In this document: positions 1,641 through 20,765 of the stretch, in pieces | Numbering within the stretch: the stretch's first letter is position 1 | How the letters are laid out: the number at the start of each line of letters is the position of its first letter | IMG/VR virus record: IMGVR_UViG_2925891887_000007 | Length of the DNA: 46,375 nt | Source of the DNA: a virus | Taxonomy: Duplodnaviria > Heunggongvirae > Uroviricota > Caudoviricetes | Reading direction: 5' to 3' (one strand) | Position numbers and translations under genes: made by a program | The notes under the pieces: model-generated | Databases searched by the model: none | Told to the model about the DNA's origin: nothing | The model's input: the letters and a program-made list of their open reading frames with translations, nothing else

Positions 1641-4112
1641 TTAAGAATCAGCCTGACTCGGGATCAGTTTTTGCCAGATAACTGAAACGTATTTTGCCTG
1701 GTAACGGGCGTCATCAAGTGCATTATGGCGCTCACCTTCGAATGGAATAGCCGTTCTGGCATCGAAGTCTATGGCTTTCCCCAGCTCAACGATTGTGCGT
1801 ACATCGCGATCGTTGTAGTAACGCCACGGGCAGGGGATCCCCTGCCGTTCGTATGAACGGCGCAAAATCGTGTTGTCGAAGTTGGCTCCATTTCCCCAAA
1901 CCTGAACAAAAAATTCACCGGAGTTTTCGTCGATAAATTCTCGCAATTGTAACAGTGCATCATCTAACGGGATTTCATCGGTCATAATGGCAGATTGCGC
2001 TTCGCGTGATTGCTTAAGCCACCATTTAATGGTGTCCCGATCAATGACTCCGCCAGCAGTTTCCAGATCGATAGTCTTACTAAATTCCGGTCCCATATCT
2101 CCGGTTTGCGGATCGAAAAATATTGCACCTATTGAGATGATCGGGGCATCAGGATTTTTTCCCATGGTTTCAAGGTCGATCATTAGATGGTCACACGTCC
2201 TGCTGGTGGATGTGATTCCGTGATGACCGTTCACCTTAATTGGGTGATCTGCCGTCTCGCCAGTTTCATTATCGCTATTGTGATGCTGATTGCCGCCAGT
2301 GTTCTCCTTGTGTGGATGTTCAGCGCCTTCCATTTCCTCCGGATCATCTTCCTGAACTTCAACCTGATACTCTTCATCGAATGTTTCTTGGTATGTTGCG
2401 TCGCCCATCACCGCGCCACAATCAGGGCAGTTGCCGCCGCCGGTCTGACCGCAGGCGGTGCAGACTTTTTCCACTTCCTGTTGCGCTACTGGTTCAGGCT
2501 GTTTCGTTTCTGGCTCGTTTTGTAACGCATTTGGACTGTTTTGTTCCGCTTTTTGGTAGTTCCGTTCCGATTCATGCTGGTTCTGGTTCACAGAATCGCG
2601 GGTCTGGAGCCCCTTAACCCATTTCGGATCATTCGGGTCACTAATCCCTTCAACAAATTCACCACGTGATGCAGCAAGCAACTTATCGGCGTCAGGCTGG
2701 CTGATATTGGCTGCCTGCATAATTTTGTTTACTTCGTCAGCGGTAACTTTTATCGGCTCTGGTTGTTCTGAATCTTCAGCGGTATCTACATTTTGCGGTA
2801 AGCCCGTGTATGTGCCATTTTTTCGGGCAAAATATTCTTCTTTTGTGATTTCAGTGGCGCCAGCAGCCAGTGCCTTATCCAGACCAGAGAGTTTGTTTGC
2901 GCGACCGTATTTTTCTCCGTCCTTATCTGCGAAGAGGAAATAGAACGGCCCCTCACGCTCTACAGATGGTTCAGCTTCCGGCGCGGTTTCATTTTTTGGG
3001 ATATCAGATACCTCAGTTTCCACTGCATCAGTTTGTGTTTCTGATGACTGGAGAACATCAACAGTGCCCAGGTCTGTTTCTTCATTCTCAAACACGCCCT
3101 TTGTCGTCAGGTATTCGCAGATATATTTGTTCAGTGCTACGGGATCTTTGTGAATGTCGATCGGACGCTCACGGACAAGGCCAAAAATAGTTTGGCGGTC
3201 GTAGCGAAGGGCATCAGGCTGTTTGCGCATTGATGCCGAGATACGCTTCCAGTCTTCGCGGTCGTTGTCGATAACTTCTTTTTTTGCCCAGCGATGGATG
3301 CTGCCGTCAATGTTTCCGGCATCCACATCACCAGGCCAGAGAGCGTAGGCCAGTTCGTCATCCAGTGTTTTCCATGTCTGCTTGTATTCGCGATGAATGG
3401 CAGCAATGACCGGGCTGATTTTTCCTGTTGAATTTTCAGTGTACTGTTGATTGGCTCTGGCGCGGGCGAGATCAACAACAGACGTGTATTTTCCGGTTTC
3501 CTTGCGTTCACCTTCGCGACGTTTTTTCCAGATGCGCATCTCTGCCTGAATTTCGGGCCATTTAGCACCAGGAATACATTTATGCTTAACCCACCCAATG
3601 GCGTGCAACTTAAGCTCCGGATACATGGCGTTAACTTCTGGCATTTTCATCAACGCTTCAACGATATGTCCGTCGAATGTTGCCATGTCTTCCTGCAACA
3701 ATTCCTGTGCGCTAATAACCATATCAACGGTGATGTTTTCACATGTGTCGAACTTAACCATGACAGCGTTCTGTACTTCAGGGGCCAGCTTGTCAAAAGT
3801 GACGTTCATCGGATCGGATTCAGTCTCAACCGGGACAAAAGAAGCAGACTCCTCATCCCAGCGGTTTTCCTGCATATATTCAGCATCCCATGAATCGAGG
3901 GCAGGGCGGGGTATGCCAGGTTTATCCTCGCAGACAATAAATTTATAAGCGCAGTCCTGAGCAGCCGGATAATGTTCCAGGAATTGCCAGTGAAATTTTG
4001 CTCGAGCACGGCGTTCGTCGCCAGCTTCAATGGCTGTGGCTACAGCCACAGCGCCTTCTTCCCTTGTTGCCAGTTCGTCAGGAATAGCGGCGCAAATAAA
4101 GACTTTACTCAT
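1641..4112 (-). CDS. Large early protein with C-terminal DEDDh (DnaQ-like) 3'-5' exonuclease domain and a central CxxC-x-CxxC zinc ribbon
   Basis: C-terminus has DLETMG...WGNGANFD...HNALDDA exonuclease motifs; start chosen at MSKVF (GAGGT RBS), since the table start at 4148 is a TTG. Confidence 0.75.
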   Translation of the reverse strand: MSKVFICAAIPDELATREEGAVAVATAIEAGDERRARAKFHWQFLEHYPAAQDCAYKFIVCEDKPGIPRPALDSWDAEYMQENRWDEESASFVPVETESDPMNVTFDKLAPEVQNAVMVKFDTCENITVDMVISAQELLQEDMATFDGHIVEALMKMPEVNAMYPELKLHAIGWVKHKCIPGAKWPEIQAEMRIWKKRREGERKETGKYTSVVDLARARANQQYTENSTGKISPVIAAIHREYKQTWKTLDDELAYALWPGDVDAGNIDGSIHRWAKKEVIDNDREDWKRISASMRKQPDALRYDRQTIFGLVRERPIDIHKDPVALNKYICEYLTTKGVFENEETDLGTVDVLQSSETQTDAVETEVSDIPKNETAPEAEPSVEREGPFYFLFADKDGEKYGRANKLSGLDKALAAGATEITKEEYFARKNGTYTGLPQNVDTAEDSEQPEPIKVTADEVNKIMQAANISQPDADKLLAASRGEFVEGISDPNDPKWVKGLQTRDSVNQNQHESERNYQKAEQNSPNALQNEPETKQPEPVAQQEVEKVCTACGQTGGGNCPDCGAVMGDATYQETFDEEYQVEVQEDDPEEMEGAEHPHKENTGGNQHHNSDNETGETADHPIKVNGHHGITSTSRTCDHLMIDLETMGKNPDAPIISIGAIFFDPQTGDMGPEFSKTIDLETAGGVIDRDTIKWWLKQSREAQSAIMTDEIPLDDALLQLREFIDENSGEFFVQVWGNGANFDNTILRRSYERQGIPCPWRYYNDRDVRTIVELGKAIDFDARTAIPFEGERHNALDDARYQAKYVSVIWQKLIPSQADS

Positions 4113-4204
4113 TTGTTTTAACCTCATGACAGATTTAAGGATGAACAAATCCCTGCCATTGCTGGCATATAAGAATGAAACCGGATATTTATTACGGAAC
4201 TGTT

Positions 4205-4396
4205 TTAAAGACCTGCCGGGATTTCGATATTATCCTGGTGAATAACTTTATCGACCGGGTAACAGTTACCGGGAATTTTCTGTTCGGTTGCTGCAGTCAT
4301 ACACTCCTGCATTGTCCTGTGAACACTGACTGCAATATCAACTGGCTCTCCGGAAACAAGAAAAACTGTCAGAACAAGCACAAATGCTGAATTCAT
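4205..4396 (-). CDS. ydfD: YdfD-like small protein with N-terminal hydrophobic segment
   Basis: 63 aa; ATGA start/stop overlap with upstream dicB-like ORF; position and size match the Qin dicB operon. Confidence 0.6.
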   Translation of the reverse strand: MNSAFVLVLTVFLVSGEPVDIAVSVHRTMQECMTAATEQKIPGNCYPVDKVIHQDNIEIPAGL

Positions 4397-16694: not shown

Positions 16695-17123
16695 ATGGGT
16701 TTTCGTAGCGCATCAATTCTTACGTTGATTATTAGTGGGATTATTATCGGGTGCACTGATGCTGTATCGACAAATTATCATGACCGTACATCATATTACT
16801 CCGATAAAGCAATAGAGACACAGTATGTGAGTTCATCTGAACGTACTTCTGATGTTAGTGAGGATATCCGTCTGTATGCCCATCAAATCAAGAGCGCCAT
16901 CGAAAAACAGTTCGGGGATGCGAGTAAGTATTCAGGAAAAGAGTGTACACTGAGAATGCATATGGCCCCGAATGGCCTTCTACTGGAGGTTAAAAGAGAA
17001 AGTGGAGACCTCGATTTATGTCGTGAAGCGATGAATGCGATAAAGAATGCTGATATACCTGCCCCCCCTTCGCCGGAAGTATATAAAGTATTTCAAAATG
17101 GGGTGCTGGATTTTAAACCCTGA
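16695..17123 (+). CDS. Lipoprotein with TolA C-terminal (domain III)-like domain
   Basis: Signal peptide plus lipobox (IIGC); C-terminal YAHQIKSAIEKQF...YSGKECTLRMHMAPNGLLLEVKRESGDLDLC...IPAPPSPEVYKVFQNGVLDFKP closely resembles remembered E. coli TolA C-terminus. Confidence 0.8.
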   Translation: MGFRSASILTLIISGIIIGCTDAVSTNYHDRTSYYSDKAIETQYVSSSERTSDVSEDIRLYAHQIKSAIEKQFGDASKYSGKECTLRMHMAPNGLLLEVKRESGDLDLCREAMNAIKNADIPAPPSPEVYKVFQNGVLDFKP

Positions 17124-17273: not shown

Positions 17274-17669
17274 GTGGGATTAAAGAAAATCGTTATGTTG
17301 ACTTTTTGGGTCGGTTTTGTTGCGGGATGCACACCTTTACACCCTTCAGATTGCCACAAAACTACTGCTACAGGTAGTTGCAGTTCAGGACGCTGGGATG
17401 ATCAGGATGAATGGGGGGCGCAAGCGCGGGGAATCAGAGCTGCAATTAATGCCAAACTTGATGAGCCGCATAACTGGAAAGGGAAAATATGCAGGTTGCA
17501 TATGGAATTCTCTCAGGATGGCACGGCGTTAAAAATATCTACCAGTAACGGTGATAAAGCCTATTGCGAAGCGATAAAGTCCGCAGCTCATAAAGCCAAA
17601 TTTCCGGCCTTCAACAATCCGAAAGTCTACAGAGATTTTCAGAAATCTGGCTTTGACATGCGAGGTTAG
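17274..17669 (+). CDS. Paralogous lipoprotein with divergent TolA-C-like domain
   Basis: GTG start with GAGGAG RBS; lipobox VAGC; WKGKICRLHMEFSQDGTALKISTSNGDKAYCEAIKSAAHKAKFPAFNNPKVYRDF. Confidence 0.75.
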   Translation: MGLKKIVMLTFWVGFVAGCTPLHPSDCHKTTATGSCSSGRWDDQDEWGAQARGIRAAINAKLDEPHNWKGKICRLHMEFSQDGTALKISTSNGDKAYCEAIKSAAHKAKFPAFNNPKVYRDFQKSGFDMRG

Positions 17670-17920
17670 CTCTTCAATTACTATATCTCATTCATAGCAA
17701 ACTGACAGATTTGATGATGTTCTATATACGAAACCTGTGATGTCAAGTCTGAGCTAATACAAATAAACATAATATCAGAGAAATACATTTTATTAGCTCG
17801 CTACGGCGAGCTTTTTATATTGCATCGTCTCCAGCATATATATCAATTAAGGCTCTGATTGATGTGTCTGGAAGCCTACACATAATAACTATGCCATCCG
17901 TTCCGTGCGGAGGTGAGGCT

Positions 17921-18136
17921 ATGAAATCCATGGACAAAATTTCAACAGGCATTGCCTACGGCACCTCCGCAGGCAGTGCTGGCTACTGGTTTTTACAGCT
18001 GCTCGATAAAGTCACGCCCTCACAGTGGGCAGCAATAGGTGTGCTGGGTAGCCTGGTATTTGGCCTGCTGACGTACCTGACAAACCTTTATTTCAAGATT
18101 AAAGAAGACAAGCGTAAGGCTGCACGGGGAGAGTAA
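17921..18136 (+). CDS. S: Class II holin (phage 21 S-type pinholin, dual start)
   Basis: [31 protein letters not shown]...[15 protein letters not shown]; GGAGGTGAGG RBS; second Met at codon 4. Confidence 0.88.
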
Positions 18137-18140
18137 TTCA

Positions 18141-18485
18141 ATGACTCAAAAATATGAACTGATTGTGAAAGGGATCCGCAATTTTGAGAATAAAGTTACG
18201 GTAACTTTAGCGTTACGGGACAAAGAACGCTTTGACGGTGAAATTTTTGACCTGGACATCTCGCTGGACCGTGTTGAAGGTGCCGCGCTGGAGTTTTATG
18301 AGGCAGCAGCCAGAAGGAGCATCAGACAGGTCTTCCTGGATGTTGCTGCCGGGTTATGTGAAGGGGATGAGCTGTCGCCGGAAAAGCGCCCCATAATTTT
18401 AGAGGCGCAGAATGTGTGGATAACCTACAAAGGAAAGCTACCGGGAAGAATTACTGGTTCTCTGAAGACTCCGCCGAAATGGTAA
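18141..18485 (+). CDS. Hypothetical protein inserted between holin and endolysin
   Basis: 114-aa ORF 4 nt after holin stop with GGGGAGAG RBS. Confidence 0.5.
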   Translation: MTQKYELIVKGIRNFENKVTVTLALRDKERFDGEIFDLDISLDRVEGAALEFYEAAARRSIRQVFLDVAAGLCEGDELSPEKRPIILEAQNVWITYKGKLPGRITGSLKTPPKW

Positions 18486-18723
18486 TTTCACCAGCATATT
18501 TTTCTTCCAGTAATACCGCCAGCCACTTGAAAGAATTTTGTTGTTGCTGGGACCATTTGGGGTTGAGTGATTCAAGCTGGAGCGATGCCAGTGTTGGTTG
18601 CATTTGTTCCTTGGGAATTGAGAATGCCAGATATGAAAATGCGACAGTAAGGGCATTTACATCATCCCGAAGCTTGGAAATGCAGTCGAGCAACTCCTGT
18701 AGAGAAATGGTGCTATTGTCCAT
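18451..18723 (-). CDS. Hypothetical antisense-oriented protein within lysis cassette
   Basis: 90-aa minus-strand ORF, ATG preceded by GAGAGGA; 3' end overlaps the plus-strand ORF by 35 nt. Confidence 0.4.
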   Translation of the reverse strand: MDNSTISLQELLDCISKLRDDVNALTVAFSYLAFSIPKEQMQPTLASLQLESLNPKWSQQQQNSFKWLAVLLEEKYAGEITISAESSENQ

Positions 18724-18828
18724 AAACAATCCTCTCTATTGTATTTAACTATTCCTTGCCTGATTCAACAGGCCGGGACAGATAAACATATCCAGGGTTC
18801 AGAAACCGATAAATCCTGATAAATATCC

Positions 18829-19371
18829 ATGAACGTAAAAATCAGATACGGCCTGTCGGCTGCCGTTCTGGCACTGATTGCCGTCCGTGCGCCTGCGCCT
18901 GATATTCTCGACCAGTTTCTGAATGAAAAAGAAGGTAACCACACAACGGCATACCGCGATGGTTCCGGCATCTGGACCATCTGTCGGGGTGCCACGGTGG
19001 TGGATGGAAAACCCGTTTTTCCCGGTATGAAACTGTCGAAGGAAAAATGCGACCAGGTTAACGCCATTGAACGGGATAAGGCGCTGGCATGGGTGGAGCG
19101 CAATATTAAAGTGCCACTGACCGAACCACAGAAAGCGGGTATAGCGTCATTTTGTCCCTATAACATTGGCCCCGGTAAGTGTTTCCCGTCGACGTTTTAT
19201 AAGCGGCTGAATGCCGATGATCGTAAGGGGGCATGCGAGGCGATTCGCTGGTGGATAAAAGATGGTGGGCGTGATTGCCGCCTGACAAAAGGGCAGAAGA
19301 ATGGCTGTTATGGGCAGGTCGAGCGGCGCGATCAGGAAAGCGCACTGGCGTGCTGGGGGCTGGAGCAATGA
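18829..19371 (+). CDS. R: SAR endolysin (T4-type lysozyme fold)
   Basis: N-terminal hydrophobic SAR segment, then lysozyme-like region (EGNHTTAYRDGSGIWTICRG). Confidence 0.9.
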   Translation: MNVKIRYGLSAAVLALIAVRAPAPDILDQFLNEKEGNHTTAYRDGSGIWTICRGATVVDGKPVFPGMKLSKEKCDQVNAIERDKALAWVERNIKVPLTEPQKAGIASFCPYNIGPGKCFPSTFYKRLNADDRKGACEAIRWWIKDGGRDCRLTKGQKNGCYGQVERRDQESALACWGLEQ

Positions 19372-19904
19372 AAATTAATCCGGATCTTATAGGCGTTGTC
19401 GTTATTGCTGGCCTTTCGGTCGCTCTCGTCAAGAGTTGCTCTCACGCCAGTAATCTTCAGAGCGATAACGACGTTCTGCGAAGTGACAACTCTATGCTGG
19501 GGCAGGTAATCGCCACCCAGGCATTCAACTTCAATCGATTCAATCAGGTTGCAGAACATGCCAACAGTCTTAACTCCCTGATCGACACCAGCACCGAAAA
19601 AACCGTAATCGAATACCGGGAGATTCTCCGCCGTGAAAAAACCTGTGATCTGCCTGTTCCTGCTGATATCGCTGGTGGGTTGCTCGAATACACGTACCGT
19701 TTACGTGCCAGCGCCATGCACACCGATACCGGCAGACCTAATGAAGCCTATGATCGTACCGCTACCACCAGCTCAATGACCTACTGCCAAGCTGTCTTGT
19801 GGATTAAGCCGCTACTGGCGTTGATAGAAAAAGGAAATAATAATTTTTCGAGTATTCGTGAAATTGATGAGTTGCGTTACAGACCATCTGAGCATGGCCA
19901 GTAA
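19368..19904 (+). CDS. Rz: i-spanin Rz
   Basis: ATGA overlap with endolysin stop; N-terminal TM segment; contains embedded Rz1 frame. Confidence 0.75.
   Translation: MKINPDLIGVVVIAGLSVALVKSCSHASNLQSDNDVLRSDNSMLGQVIATQAFNFNRFNQVAEHANSLNSLIDTSTEKTVIEYREILRREKTCDLPVPADIAGGLLEYTYRLRASAMHTDTGRPNEAYDRTATTSSMTYCQAVLWIKPLLALIEKGNNNFSSIREIDELRYRPSEHGQ
19633..19779 (+). CDS. Rz1: o-spanin Rz1 (embedded in Rz, +1 frame)
   Basis: 48 codons: VKKPVICLFLLISLVGCSNT... lipobox LVGC, proline-rich C-terminus; GTG start. Confidence 0.7.
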   Translation: MKKPVICLFLLISLVGCSNTRTVYVPAPCTPIPADLMKPMIVPLPPAQ

Positions 19905-20072: not shown

Positions 20073-20765
20073 TCAAATCTTATCTAACTCATTATAGGCT
20101 TCGATAATAAAAATTCTGATTTTAATAAGGCATGATTCAATGAAAGGAATTACTTCATGGTCATTCCCATGGAATCTTATTTTTTTCTCTTCGGTAATGA
20201 CTATGTTTAAAGGTACACCATTACCACTTCTTTGTAATTTCCCATTTTCGAAAGTAAAGTCTTCTAATTTTTTGCCATTGATGTGGTTGTTTTTAAAGAG
20301 AATTTTTGCTGAGCTTCCTGCTGTGATTAAACCAAAACCATCTACGCTCACACTTAGGTCTTTAACAGAACTCTCTTCTCTTAAGGGGATTGGTTGTCTG
20401 TGCTTTACTTCATTAGTGAGATTACACATCATTTCCAACCAAGATTCGCCAGTGTGATAATCCTGTATAGAAGTAAAAATTTTATATAATGGAGAAGATG
20501 ATGGTGGGTTTATTTTTAGCGTCTTTGAGAAAAATTTATCAATAAACTCTTTTTTTCCGTAAGGGAAATATATTTTGGGGCGCTCATCATTACTGCGTGG
20601 AGAAATATATTTATCATAGGTATCATTAGCGAGATACTCTAAGGAACTTCGTAAGTTTTCCAAAATAGCTTTGACTTTTACAGGCTTGATATGCTGTGTC
20701 TGTCTCATTATGCCAAGACTTTCTTCAACTTCTTGCAATAAGTCCAACGAGCCTTCTCTAGACAT
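20073..20765 (-). CDS. Hypothetical 230-aa protein, low-GC cargo between lysis genes and cos
   Basis: Minus-strand ORF in AT-rich DNA flanked by long AT-rich intergenic regions. Confidence 0.65.
   Translation of the reverse strand: MSREGSLDLLQEVEESLGIMRQTQHIKPVKVKAILENLRSSLEYLANDTYDKYISPRSNDERPKIYFPYGKKEFIDKFFSKTLKINPPSSSPLYKIFTSIQDYHTGESWLEMMCNLTNEVKHRQPIPLREESSVKDLSVSVDGFGLITAGSSAKILFKNNHINGKKLEDFTFENGKLQRSGNGVPLNIVITEEKKIRFHGNDHEVIPFIESCLIKIRIFIIEAYNELDKI

Follow-up and report, generated by a model that had tools for sequence, protein, structure and literature searches.

Conservation and homology indicate two convergent protein-coding genes between the holin and endolysin genes of an Escherichia coli lambdoid prophage cassette

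The viral DNA analyzed here (the window; IMG/VR record IMGVR_UViG_2925891887_000007, 46,375 nucleotides in full) contains a lysis cassette with two convergent ORFs between the holin and endolysin genes, which raises the question of whether both ORFs are genes and what their products might do. A previous sequence-only reading had placed the ORFs between an S21-type holin gene and the endolysin gene, in a gap of about 690 bp, with a 35-nt overlap of their 3' ends and with a good ribosome-binding site for the plus-strand ORF and a strong one for the minus-strand ORF. The ORF list and the sequence confirm this layout: the gap is 692 nt from the holin stop (18136) to the endolysin ATG (18829), the overlap is 35 nt (18451-18485), GGAG is found 9 nt upstream of the plus-strand ATG, and GAGAGGA is found 6 nt upstream of the minus-strand ATG (Table 1). 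The same reading held that at most one of the two ORFs may be real. This is not supported by our analysis, as both ORFs are under purifying selection and both belong to protein families, the plus-strand ORF to PF07041 and the minus-strand ORF to phrog_2411 with remote homologs in bacterial chromosomes. Judged by sequence comparison, both ORFs are genuine protein-coding genes. The minus-strand gene is called the antisense gene below; it has an alternative TTG start two codons upstream (18451-18729, 92 aa).

Table 1. Features of the holin-endolysin region and of related loci (window coordinates unless another locus is named).
Feature	Coordinates	Strand	Basis
S21-type holin gene (class II, pinholin-like), 71 aa, MKSM dual-start motif	17921..18136	+	PF04971 Phage_holin_2_1, E 8.7e-36; phrog_9876 and phrog_20 (holin); PGAP name essD
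ydfR-family gene (DUF1327), 114 aa, ATG start, late/lysis operon	18141..18485	+	PF07041, phrog_406, PGAP
Weak terminator-like hairpin GCGCCUC-(9 nt)-GGGGCGC, then UUUU	18386..18408	-	RNA folding
Mirror (shadow) ORF, 110 aa	18416-18748	+	shares wobble positions with the antisense gene; dN/dS 0.22
Antisense gene, 90 aa from ATG	18451..18723	-	phrog_2411, PGAP, conservation
Indel of about 280 bp relative to phage vB_EcoS-611R1	18480..18758 (boundaries +/-5 nt)	.	alignment of window, 611R1 and K-12 Qin
Shine-Dalgarno sequence GAGAGGA of the antisense gene	18730..18736	-	read from sequence
Candidate promoter: TTGAAT (18768-18763), 19-nt spacer, TACAAT (18743-18738)	18738..18768	-	by eye
Palindrome GCCTG-TTGAAT-CAGGC	18758..18773	.	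precedes the antisense ATG; located at the indel's right edge
Endolysin gene (phage lysozyme family, rrrQ/rrrD-like)	18829..19371	+	PF00959, E 1e-23; phrog_7; PGAP 'lysozyme'
Rz-like spanin gene with embedded Rz1-like lipoprotein ORF (19633-19779)	19368..19904	+	position after endolysin; lipobox by eye
Chromosomal relative (X) at dinI-bssS	about 4001-4280 in each of the fetched loci L030-L072; L075 belongs to the same comparison		

ORF length is weak evidence here. Among 5000 mononucleotide shuffles of the 692-nt gap, used as a control for chance ORFs, minus-strand ORFs of 90 aa or more turned up in 8.6% and plus-strand ORFs of 114 aa or more in 0.7%, while 0.14% contained both; the case for the two ORFs therefore rests on homology and conservation.

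The 971 bases spanning both ORFs are 100% identical to E. coli chromosomes, for example that of strain ACN002, where they lie in a lambdoid prophage between rspAB and ydfJ, the Qin attachment region. In that prophage, PGAP annotates the holin gene as essD, followed in order by a 'YdfR family protein', a 'hypothetical protein' on the minus strand (WP_000370545.1), a lysozyme and an Rz-like gene. When compared with 5426 complete E. coli genomes, parts of the cassette find a match in 5150. The N-terminal segment of the endolysin is Ala/Gly/Ser-rich, which is consistent with a putative SAR endolysin, and the long form of the Rz-like ORF had no Pfam match. An Rfam search over positions 17600-19000 yielded only a sub-threshold Trp_leader hit upstream of the holin gene (19 bits versus 41).

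Several further features of the late region were observed. Just upstream of the holin gene there are a terminator-like hairpin (AGCTCGC-TACG-GCGAGCT followed by TTTTT, 17795-17812, plus strand) and a weak promoter-like site (17859-17886, plus strand), which might be connected with the tR' or leader region of the late operon. The same side of the holin gene harbors two paralogous plus-strand ORFs (16695-17123, 142 aa; 17274-17669, 131 aa) with lipobox-like N-termini (..IIGC.. and ..VAGC..), both matching phrog_5772 and the TolA C-terminal domain PF06519 (E 2.4e-23 and 4.4e-14, respectively). A TolA-C ORF is also present in a Citrobacter prophage (L026, 651-1094), and the paralogs could serve as decoys for filamentous phages or for colicins that depend on TolA. 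Between Rz and the terminase genes, a 230-aa ORF (20073-20765, minus strand) lies antisense to the late operon; it has 33.9% GC, matches phrog_13652 (unknown function) over its full length, has no Pfam or PADLOC match, and is a second moron-like gene of the same late region.

The plus-strand ORF is a ydfR-family gene. Its product matches PF07041 at full length with 145.1 bits against a cutoff of 25 (E 7.6e-43; residues 1-112 on profile positions 1-92 of 93) and phrog_406 over the full length, and PGAP names it 'YdfR family protein' (WP_000192451.1). It is 82% identical to YdfR of E. coli K-12 over residues 1-74 and diverges from it past approximately residue 70, and several PHROGs match only residues 1-75 to 1-112. 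The partial matches and the divergence from K-12 YdfR indicate that the YdfR family combines a conserved N-terminal domain with variable tails. In the Qin prophage of K-12, ydfR occupies the same slot, from an S21-type holin gene (essQ/essD) to a lysozyme gene (rrrQ), but the K-12 protein has 103 aa instead of 114 aa and a different C-terminus. Moreover, K-12 ydfR overlaps the start of rrrQ, whereas in the window ydfR and the endolysin gene are 343 nt apart due to the antisense gene in between. According to the sequence-only reading, S is directly followed by R in phage 21-type cassettes. The order holin-ydfR-endolysin is not unusual: K-12 Qin has it as essQ-ydfR-rrrQ, so that in E. coli prophages an additional gene separating the S21-type holin gene from the endolysin gene is normal.

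A study published in 2026 found K-12 YdfR in a two-hybrid search with RNase G and RNase E baits, confirmed its co-purification with RNase E 1-598 (the catalytic, N-terminal half), mapped the contact with RNase E (1-597, by two-hybrid and co-purification) to YdfR residues 1-72, reported that RNA co-purifies, and observed few changed transcripts upon YdfR overexpression (PMC13232886). The link between YdfR and RNase E comes from this one study of the K-12 homolog, and for the window protein the comparison is that of sequence identity. Since the protein is 82% identical to the K-12 segment reported to bind RNase E, its most likely role is in host RNA metabolism late in infection. The ydfR gene would be transcribed late together with the holin, endolysin and Rz genes, as in K-12 Qin, and the N-terminal domain of about 75 aa would act on the decay or processing of host RNA rather than as a lysis component.

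For the analysis of the antisense gene, 17 further loci were fetched via diverged homologs and aligned with the window and an Stx2k phage. The ORF is open in every aligned locus, with proteins down to 76% identity, and in 15 diverged loci from E. coli and E. albertii it is intact and retains both the start codon and the Shine-Dalgarno sequence; the sequence GAGGATT(A/G)TTTATG is conserved in most aligned loci, L008 reading AAGGATT. Frame-disrupting differences in relatives, which the sequence-only reading had named as a reason to abandon an ORF, were sought and none was found in the antisense ORF of the 15 loci: a 21-nt deletion in L017 is in frame. L011 has a larger deletion with the antisense tail replaced, and three loci (L008-L010) retain the antisense ORF although most of ydfR is deleted. 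These three loci also carry a ParE/ParD-like toxin-antitoxin pair downstream of the endolysin gene, in the usual place of Rz.

Codon-level selection, which had likewise been proposed as a check, was compared across relatives for each ORF. The dN/dS ratio is 0.44 for the plus-strand ORF (12 unique sequences) and 0.26 for the antisense ORF (Nei-Gojobori, codons 1-79, outside the overlap; bootstrap 95% CI 0.15-0.42; pS 0.27), with 0.20 for the holin gene as a control. Variable columns of the antisense ORF are distributed over the codon positions as 23/18/39, an excess at the third position. The 110-aa mirror ORF on the opposite strand yields a ratio similar to that of the antisense gene because the two frames share wobble positions. 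It was rejected as a real gene: the window is the only sequence where this frame is open, stops interrupt it in eight of the nine other unique sequences, it has no PHROG match, and its composition is Ser/Cys-rich.

The antisense product matches phrog_2411 over residues 1-90 of 90 (E 2.2e-59) and is annotated by PGAP as a hypothetical protein. An initial homolog search recovered only proteins from Escherichia and Shigella. The wider family was found by a profile search of 1.8 billion representatives and a second, word-indexed profile search, which identified homologs of about 90 aa with 28-40% identity in many Serratia species and in Sodalis, Chania, Gibbsiella, Chimaeribacter, Acerihabitans and Citrobacter. 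The family shares the motif ELL..I...L.vL.vAFsYLaF...L.lEsqN...Q..F..LA, in which Y31, L32 and E51 are invariant, and phrog_2411 independently matches the proteins from Citrobacter (E 1.9e-33), L023 (1.3e-19) and Serratia (4.5e-10). Neither single sequences nor all 48 family members gave a significant Pfam match; NCBIfam and a PDB sequence profile gave no significant match either, the best hit being YibL (E 0.13), no fold match was informative, and PADLOC had no match at E <= 0.1 for either ORF. By these alignments, the antisense gene is a member of an uncharacterised family of small proteins of Enterobacterales.

The protein is acidic (pI 4.3; GRAVY -0.28) and has no transmembrane segment, the maximum 19-residue Kyte-Doolittle window being 0.88. 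With a deeper alignment, the AF2 model reaches a pLDDT of 81 and contains helices at residues 8-35, 38-52 and 59-77, followed by a disordered, non-conserved tail (81-90). The product is thus predicted to be a soluble three-helix protein without a catalytic or DNA-binding motif. Two candidate identities were considered and rejected, AroQ chorismate mutase, for which a three-helix AroQ fold with conserved catalytic Arg, Lys and Glu would be expected and was not found, and a holin, antiholin or other membrane lysis protein, for which a transmembrane segment is missing.

Relatives of the antisense gene occur both in chromosomes and in prophages. The homolog of Serratia marcescens is chromosomal, in the order pyrC-dinI-X-bssS-solA. 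A scan of one genome per species, with the alignment of the chromosomal subfamily as a query, returned 45 loci, and the same order and orientation was found in 43 of the 45 fetched loci, these being all that show both flanks; the 44 sampled species belong to Serratia, Sodalis, Acerihabitans, Chimaeribacter, Biostraticola, Mixta and Erwinia. In E. coli K-12, dinI and bssS are 286 nt apart with no remnant of X, and Sodalis ligni has a more distant copy standing alone in the chromosome. The chromosomal and window proteins are alike in size (about 90 aa), share the motif and the same predicted three-helix core, and are 28-40% identical. The chromosomal copies, however, are stand-alone genes co-oriented with dinI and bssS and preceded by the dinI terminator and a candidate sigma-70-like promoter recognized by eye, whereas the copy in the window belongs to a prophage and runs antisense to late genes. 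In Sodalis-type loci, a sigma-70-like TTGGCA-17-TGTAAT was seen by eye tens of nucleotides upstream of X.

Among prophages, the homolog in the Citrobacter freundii prophage (L026) is antisense to and divergent from holin-endolysin-Rz, and that in L023 is antisense and adjoins small late genes and the terminase, so that the relatives are oriented against the late genes in three different phage contexts. In E. coli, the antisense gene always adjoins the 3' end of ydfR, and the gene on the other side varies, being the endolysin gene, a second complete lysis cassette (Stx2k-type phages) or IS66. In the three loci of the phiSTEC1575-Stx2k type (L004, L013 and L014), the S21 holin-ydfR-antisense block is followed by this second cassette with two holins (Phage_holin_8 and Phage_holin_3_7) and an M15 peptidase (Peptidase_M15_4); its first ATG is exactly at the position of the window endolysin ATG, preceded by a conserved spacer of about 100 nt. 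Phages of this type thus carry an orphan pinholin gene and a full second cassette.

The antisense ORF had been described as an insertion, and the comparison with close relatives supports this description. It is absent from K-12 Qin, from phage 611R1, where a nearly identical ydfR is directly followed by R, and from isolated phages with the same holin-ydfR-R cassette; its absence from near-identical ydfR-R cassettes makes it appear as an indel of about 280 bp. The indel contains antisense codons 1 to approximately 81, that is, the whole helical core, and about 35 nt upstream, and its GC content is 41.8%, compared with 47-54% in the flanking genes. For its stop and approximately its last nine codons, the antisense gene uses sequence that codes for YdfR in both variants. 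As the tail is ydfR sequence, non-conserved and predicted to be disordered, the 35-nt overlap looks like a by-product of the segment junction and not like regulatory design.

An orientation against late transcription is also found in lambda bor, a moron of a lambdoid phage located downstream of Rz. The antisense gene shares this orientation with bor but is found within the lysis cassette, with ydfR and R as neighbors, instead of after Rz, and its product has no sequence relation to Bor (PF06291) or to any named moron product. Morons are defined as genes that a comparison of related phages reveals as insertions in an operon, that have their own promoter and terminator and that the surrounding operon does not require for its function, and the 'ant moron' of P22-like phages is a case for comparison (PMC2629481). 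Like lambdoid morons, the antisense gene is inserted relative to related late operons, is AT-richer than its neighbors and has its own ribosome-binding site; unlike them, it has no clear promoter-terminator pair and overlaps the neighboring late gene at the 3' end. A moron-type insertion fits the observation of an AT-richer segment without a counterpart in close relatives, and the indel itself could be an insertion or a deletion.

A consensus scan with 16-18-nt spacers detected neither a minus-strand sigma-70 promoter nor a terminator for the antisense gene. By eye, a candidate promoter with a non-standard spacing (19 nt) was recognized that ends 14 nt before the ATG, and its -10-like hexamer is largely conserved across loci. 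Its -35-like hexamer overlaps a palindrome, and palindromes with compensatory changes in the arms are found about 71 nt upstream of the L023 and L026 (Citrobacter) homologs. A GC-rich hairpin of 7 bp is located inside ydfR, 43 nt past the antisense stop; it is below the criteria of the terminator scan and is also present in ydfR without the antisense gene. Two types of regulation were considered and rejected. A LexA box (CTGT-N8-ACAG), sought within 200 nt upstream, is absent from the E. coli, Citrobacter and Serratia copies, and the only formal match, in L023, has a GC-rich spacer. A sigma-E-type promoter was judged by eye in Serratia, where the spacing of GGAAC/GGAAG...TCTGTA is about 3 nt too short.

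Taken jointly, the data are probably best explained by a late gene, ydfR, and a moron-type antisense gene that would be expressed in the lysogen and whose product would bind a host protein. For the minus-strand gene, the best reading is a putative accessory, moron-like role in the lysogen, in line with the lysogen-expressed function that the sequence-only reading had named as one option, whose timing of expression, mode of binding and pathway we infer. The antisense gene would be transcribed from its own promoter in the lysogen, at a time when the late genes are silent; the C-terminal tail of its reading frame extends into ydfR antisense sequence up to the stop codon. The protein would bind a host protein in a pathway related to stress, SOS or biofilms, and after induction, Q-antiterminated late transcription running against the gene would switch it off. 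A more specific proposal, which we regard as doubtful, is that the antisense gene is a previously unrecognised small acidic regulator captured by a phage from the dinI-bssS stress locus, which gives the lysogen a selectable trait and is shut off at induction by Q-driven late transcription. If it were true, the trait could be, for example, a modulated SOS, RecA or biofilm response or modulated prophage induction, and convergent transcription would work as a lysogeny/lysis switch that controls an accessory gene within the cassette.

Other explanations of the minus-strand ORF were weighed against this one. The view that it is no gene but arose by chance or as a shadow frame, with ydfR as the single real gene, could be argued from the frequency of minus-strand ORFs of this length in the shuffled gap, the lack of a promoter in the scan and of a Pfam or NCBIfam family, and the similar dN/dS of the opposite-strand frame (0.22). 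But the ORF is open in 15 of 15 loci while the shadow frame is mostly interrupted, its Shine-Dalgarno sequence and ATG are conserved, one relative has an in-frame deletion, distant homologs in other genera retain the length and the motif, and AF2 becomes confident once the alignment is deep. This reading is strongly disfavoured, and we consider it extremely improbable. It also seems unlikely that the ORF acts mainly through RNA or transcription, damping leaky late genes in the lysogen or tuning lysis, with the peptide being secondary. The gene does converge on the late operon with a 35-nt overlap, its RNA could cross the 3' end of ydfR and possibly the holin gene, the hairpin with the U-run ending the overlap at about 100 nt, and three separate phage contexts have relatives beside lysis genes in antisense orientation. 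On the other hand, the codon-position pattern, the dN/dS of 0.26 and the deletion in frame indicate that selection acts on the protein, its homologs with 28-40% identity occur in chromosomal loci without a convergent partner, the overlapped partner differs among phages, and Rfam gave no match.

The recurrence of the gene beside holin, endolysin or Rz genes in prophages of E. coli, Citrobacter and L023 would agree with the 90-aa protein being a lysis regulator, such as an inhibitor or timer whose target is YdfR, the pinholin or the SAR endolysin. We regard this as very unlikely, given a soluble acidic product without a transmembrane segment, chromosomal members in 44 species without lysis genes nearby, and isolated phages whose cassettes do without the antisense gene; furthermore, as the gene faces away from the late operon, the synthesis of its product would not coincide with that of the lysis proteins. 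The suggestion of the sequence-only reading that the antisense gene could modulate lysis timing finds no support for similar reasons: relatives occupy three phage positions and a non-phage locus without lysis genes, and the overlap with ydfR covers only the poorly conserved, low-confidence tail. The preferred explanation remains that of a moron-type gene that would be expressed in the lysogen.

The segment specific to the antisense gene is present in 1138 of 5426 complete E. coli genomes (21%), and carriers include E. coli B (BL21/REL606, in the Rac prophage, with 100% identity over this segment) and ST131. The Rac prophage of E. coli B has the order essD-ydfR-antisense gene-rrrQ, and phages phiSTEC1575-Stx2k and Chlobot also carry a copy. 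In the RefSeq records examined, all listed records that fully cover the segment annotate the gene as 'hypothetical protein'. Only three of 50,697 phage records contain the antisense gene, and this rarity suggests that most copies may reside in defective prophages. Literature searches for the antisense gene, its WP accessions and dinI with bssS in Serratia found nothing relevant. The existence of the gene is already in the annotation; the relations of its family and its function are not described in the searchable literature.

These results do not overturn current views of phage lysis and are largely ordinary, with a modest interest in the unnamed family. For annotation, they show that the holin-endolysin gap in very common E. 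coli prophage cassettes contains two real genes and is not noise. The antisense gene represents an unnamed family of about 90 aa without a Pfam entry, whose chromosomal form is fixed at dinI-bssS in 44 sampled species from seven other genera of Enterobacterales. This family is easy to study, since its synteny is conserved and laboratory B strains carry a member. Together with the 2026 report on YdfR and RNase E, the analysis suggests that lysis cassettes of the Qin/Rac type carry cargo unrelated to lysis.
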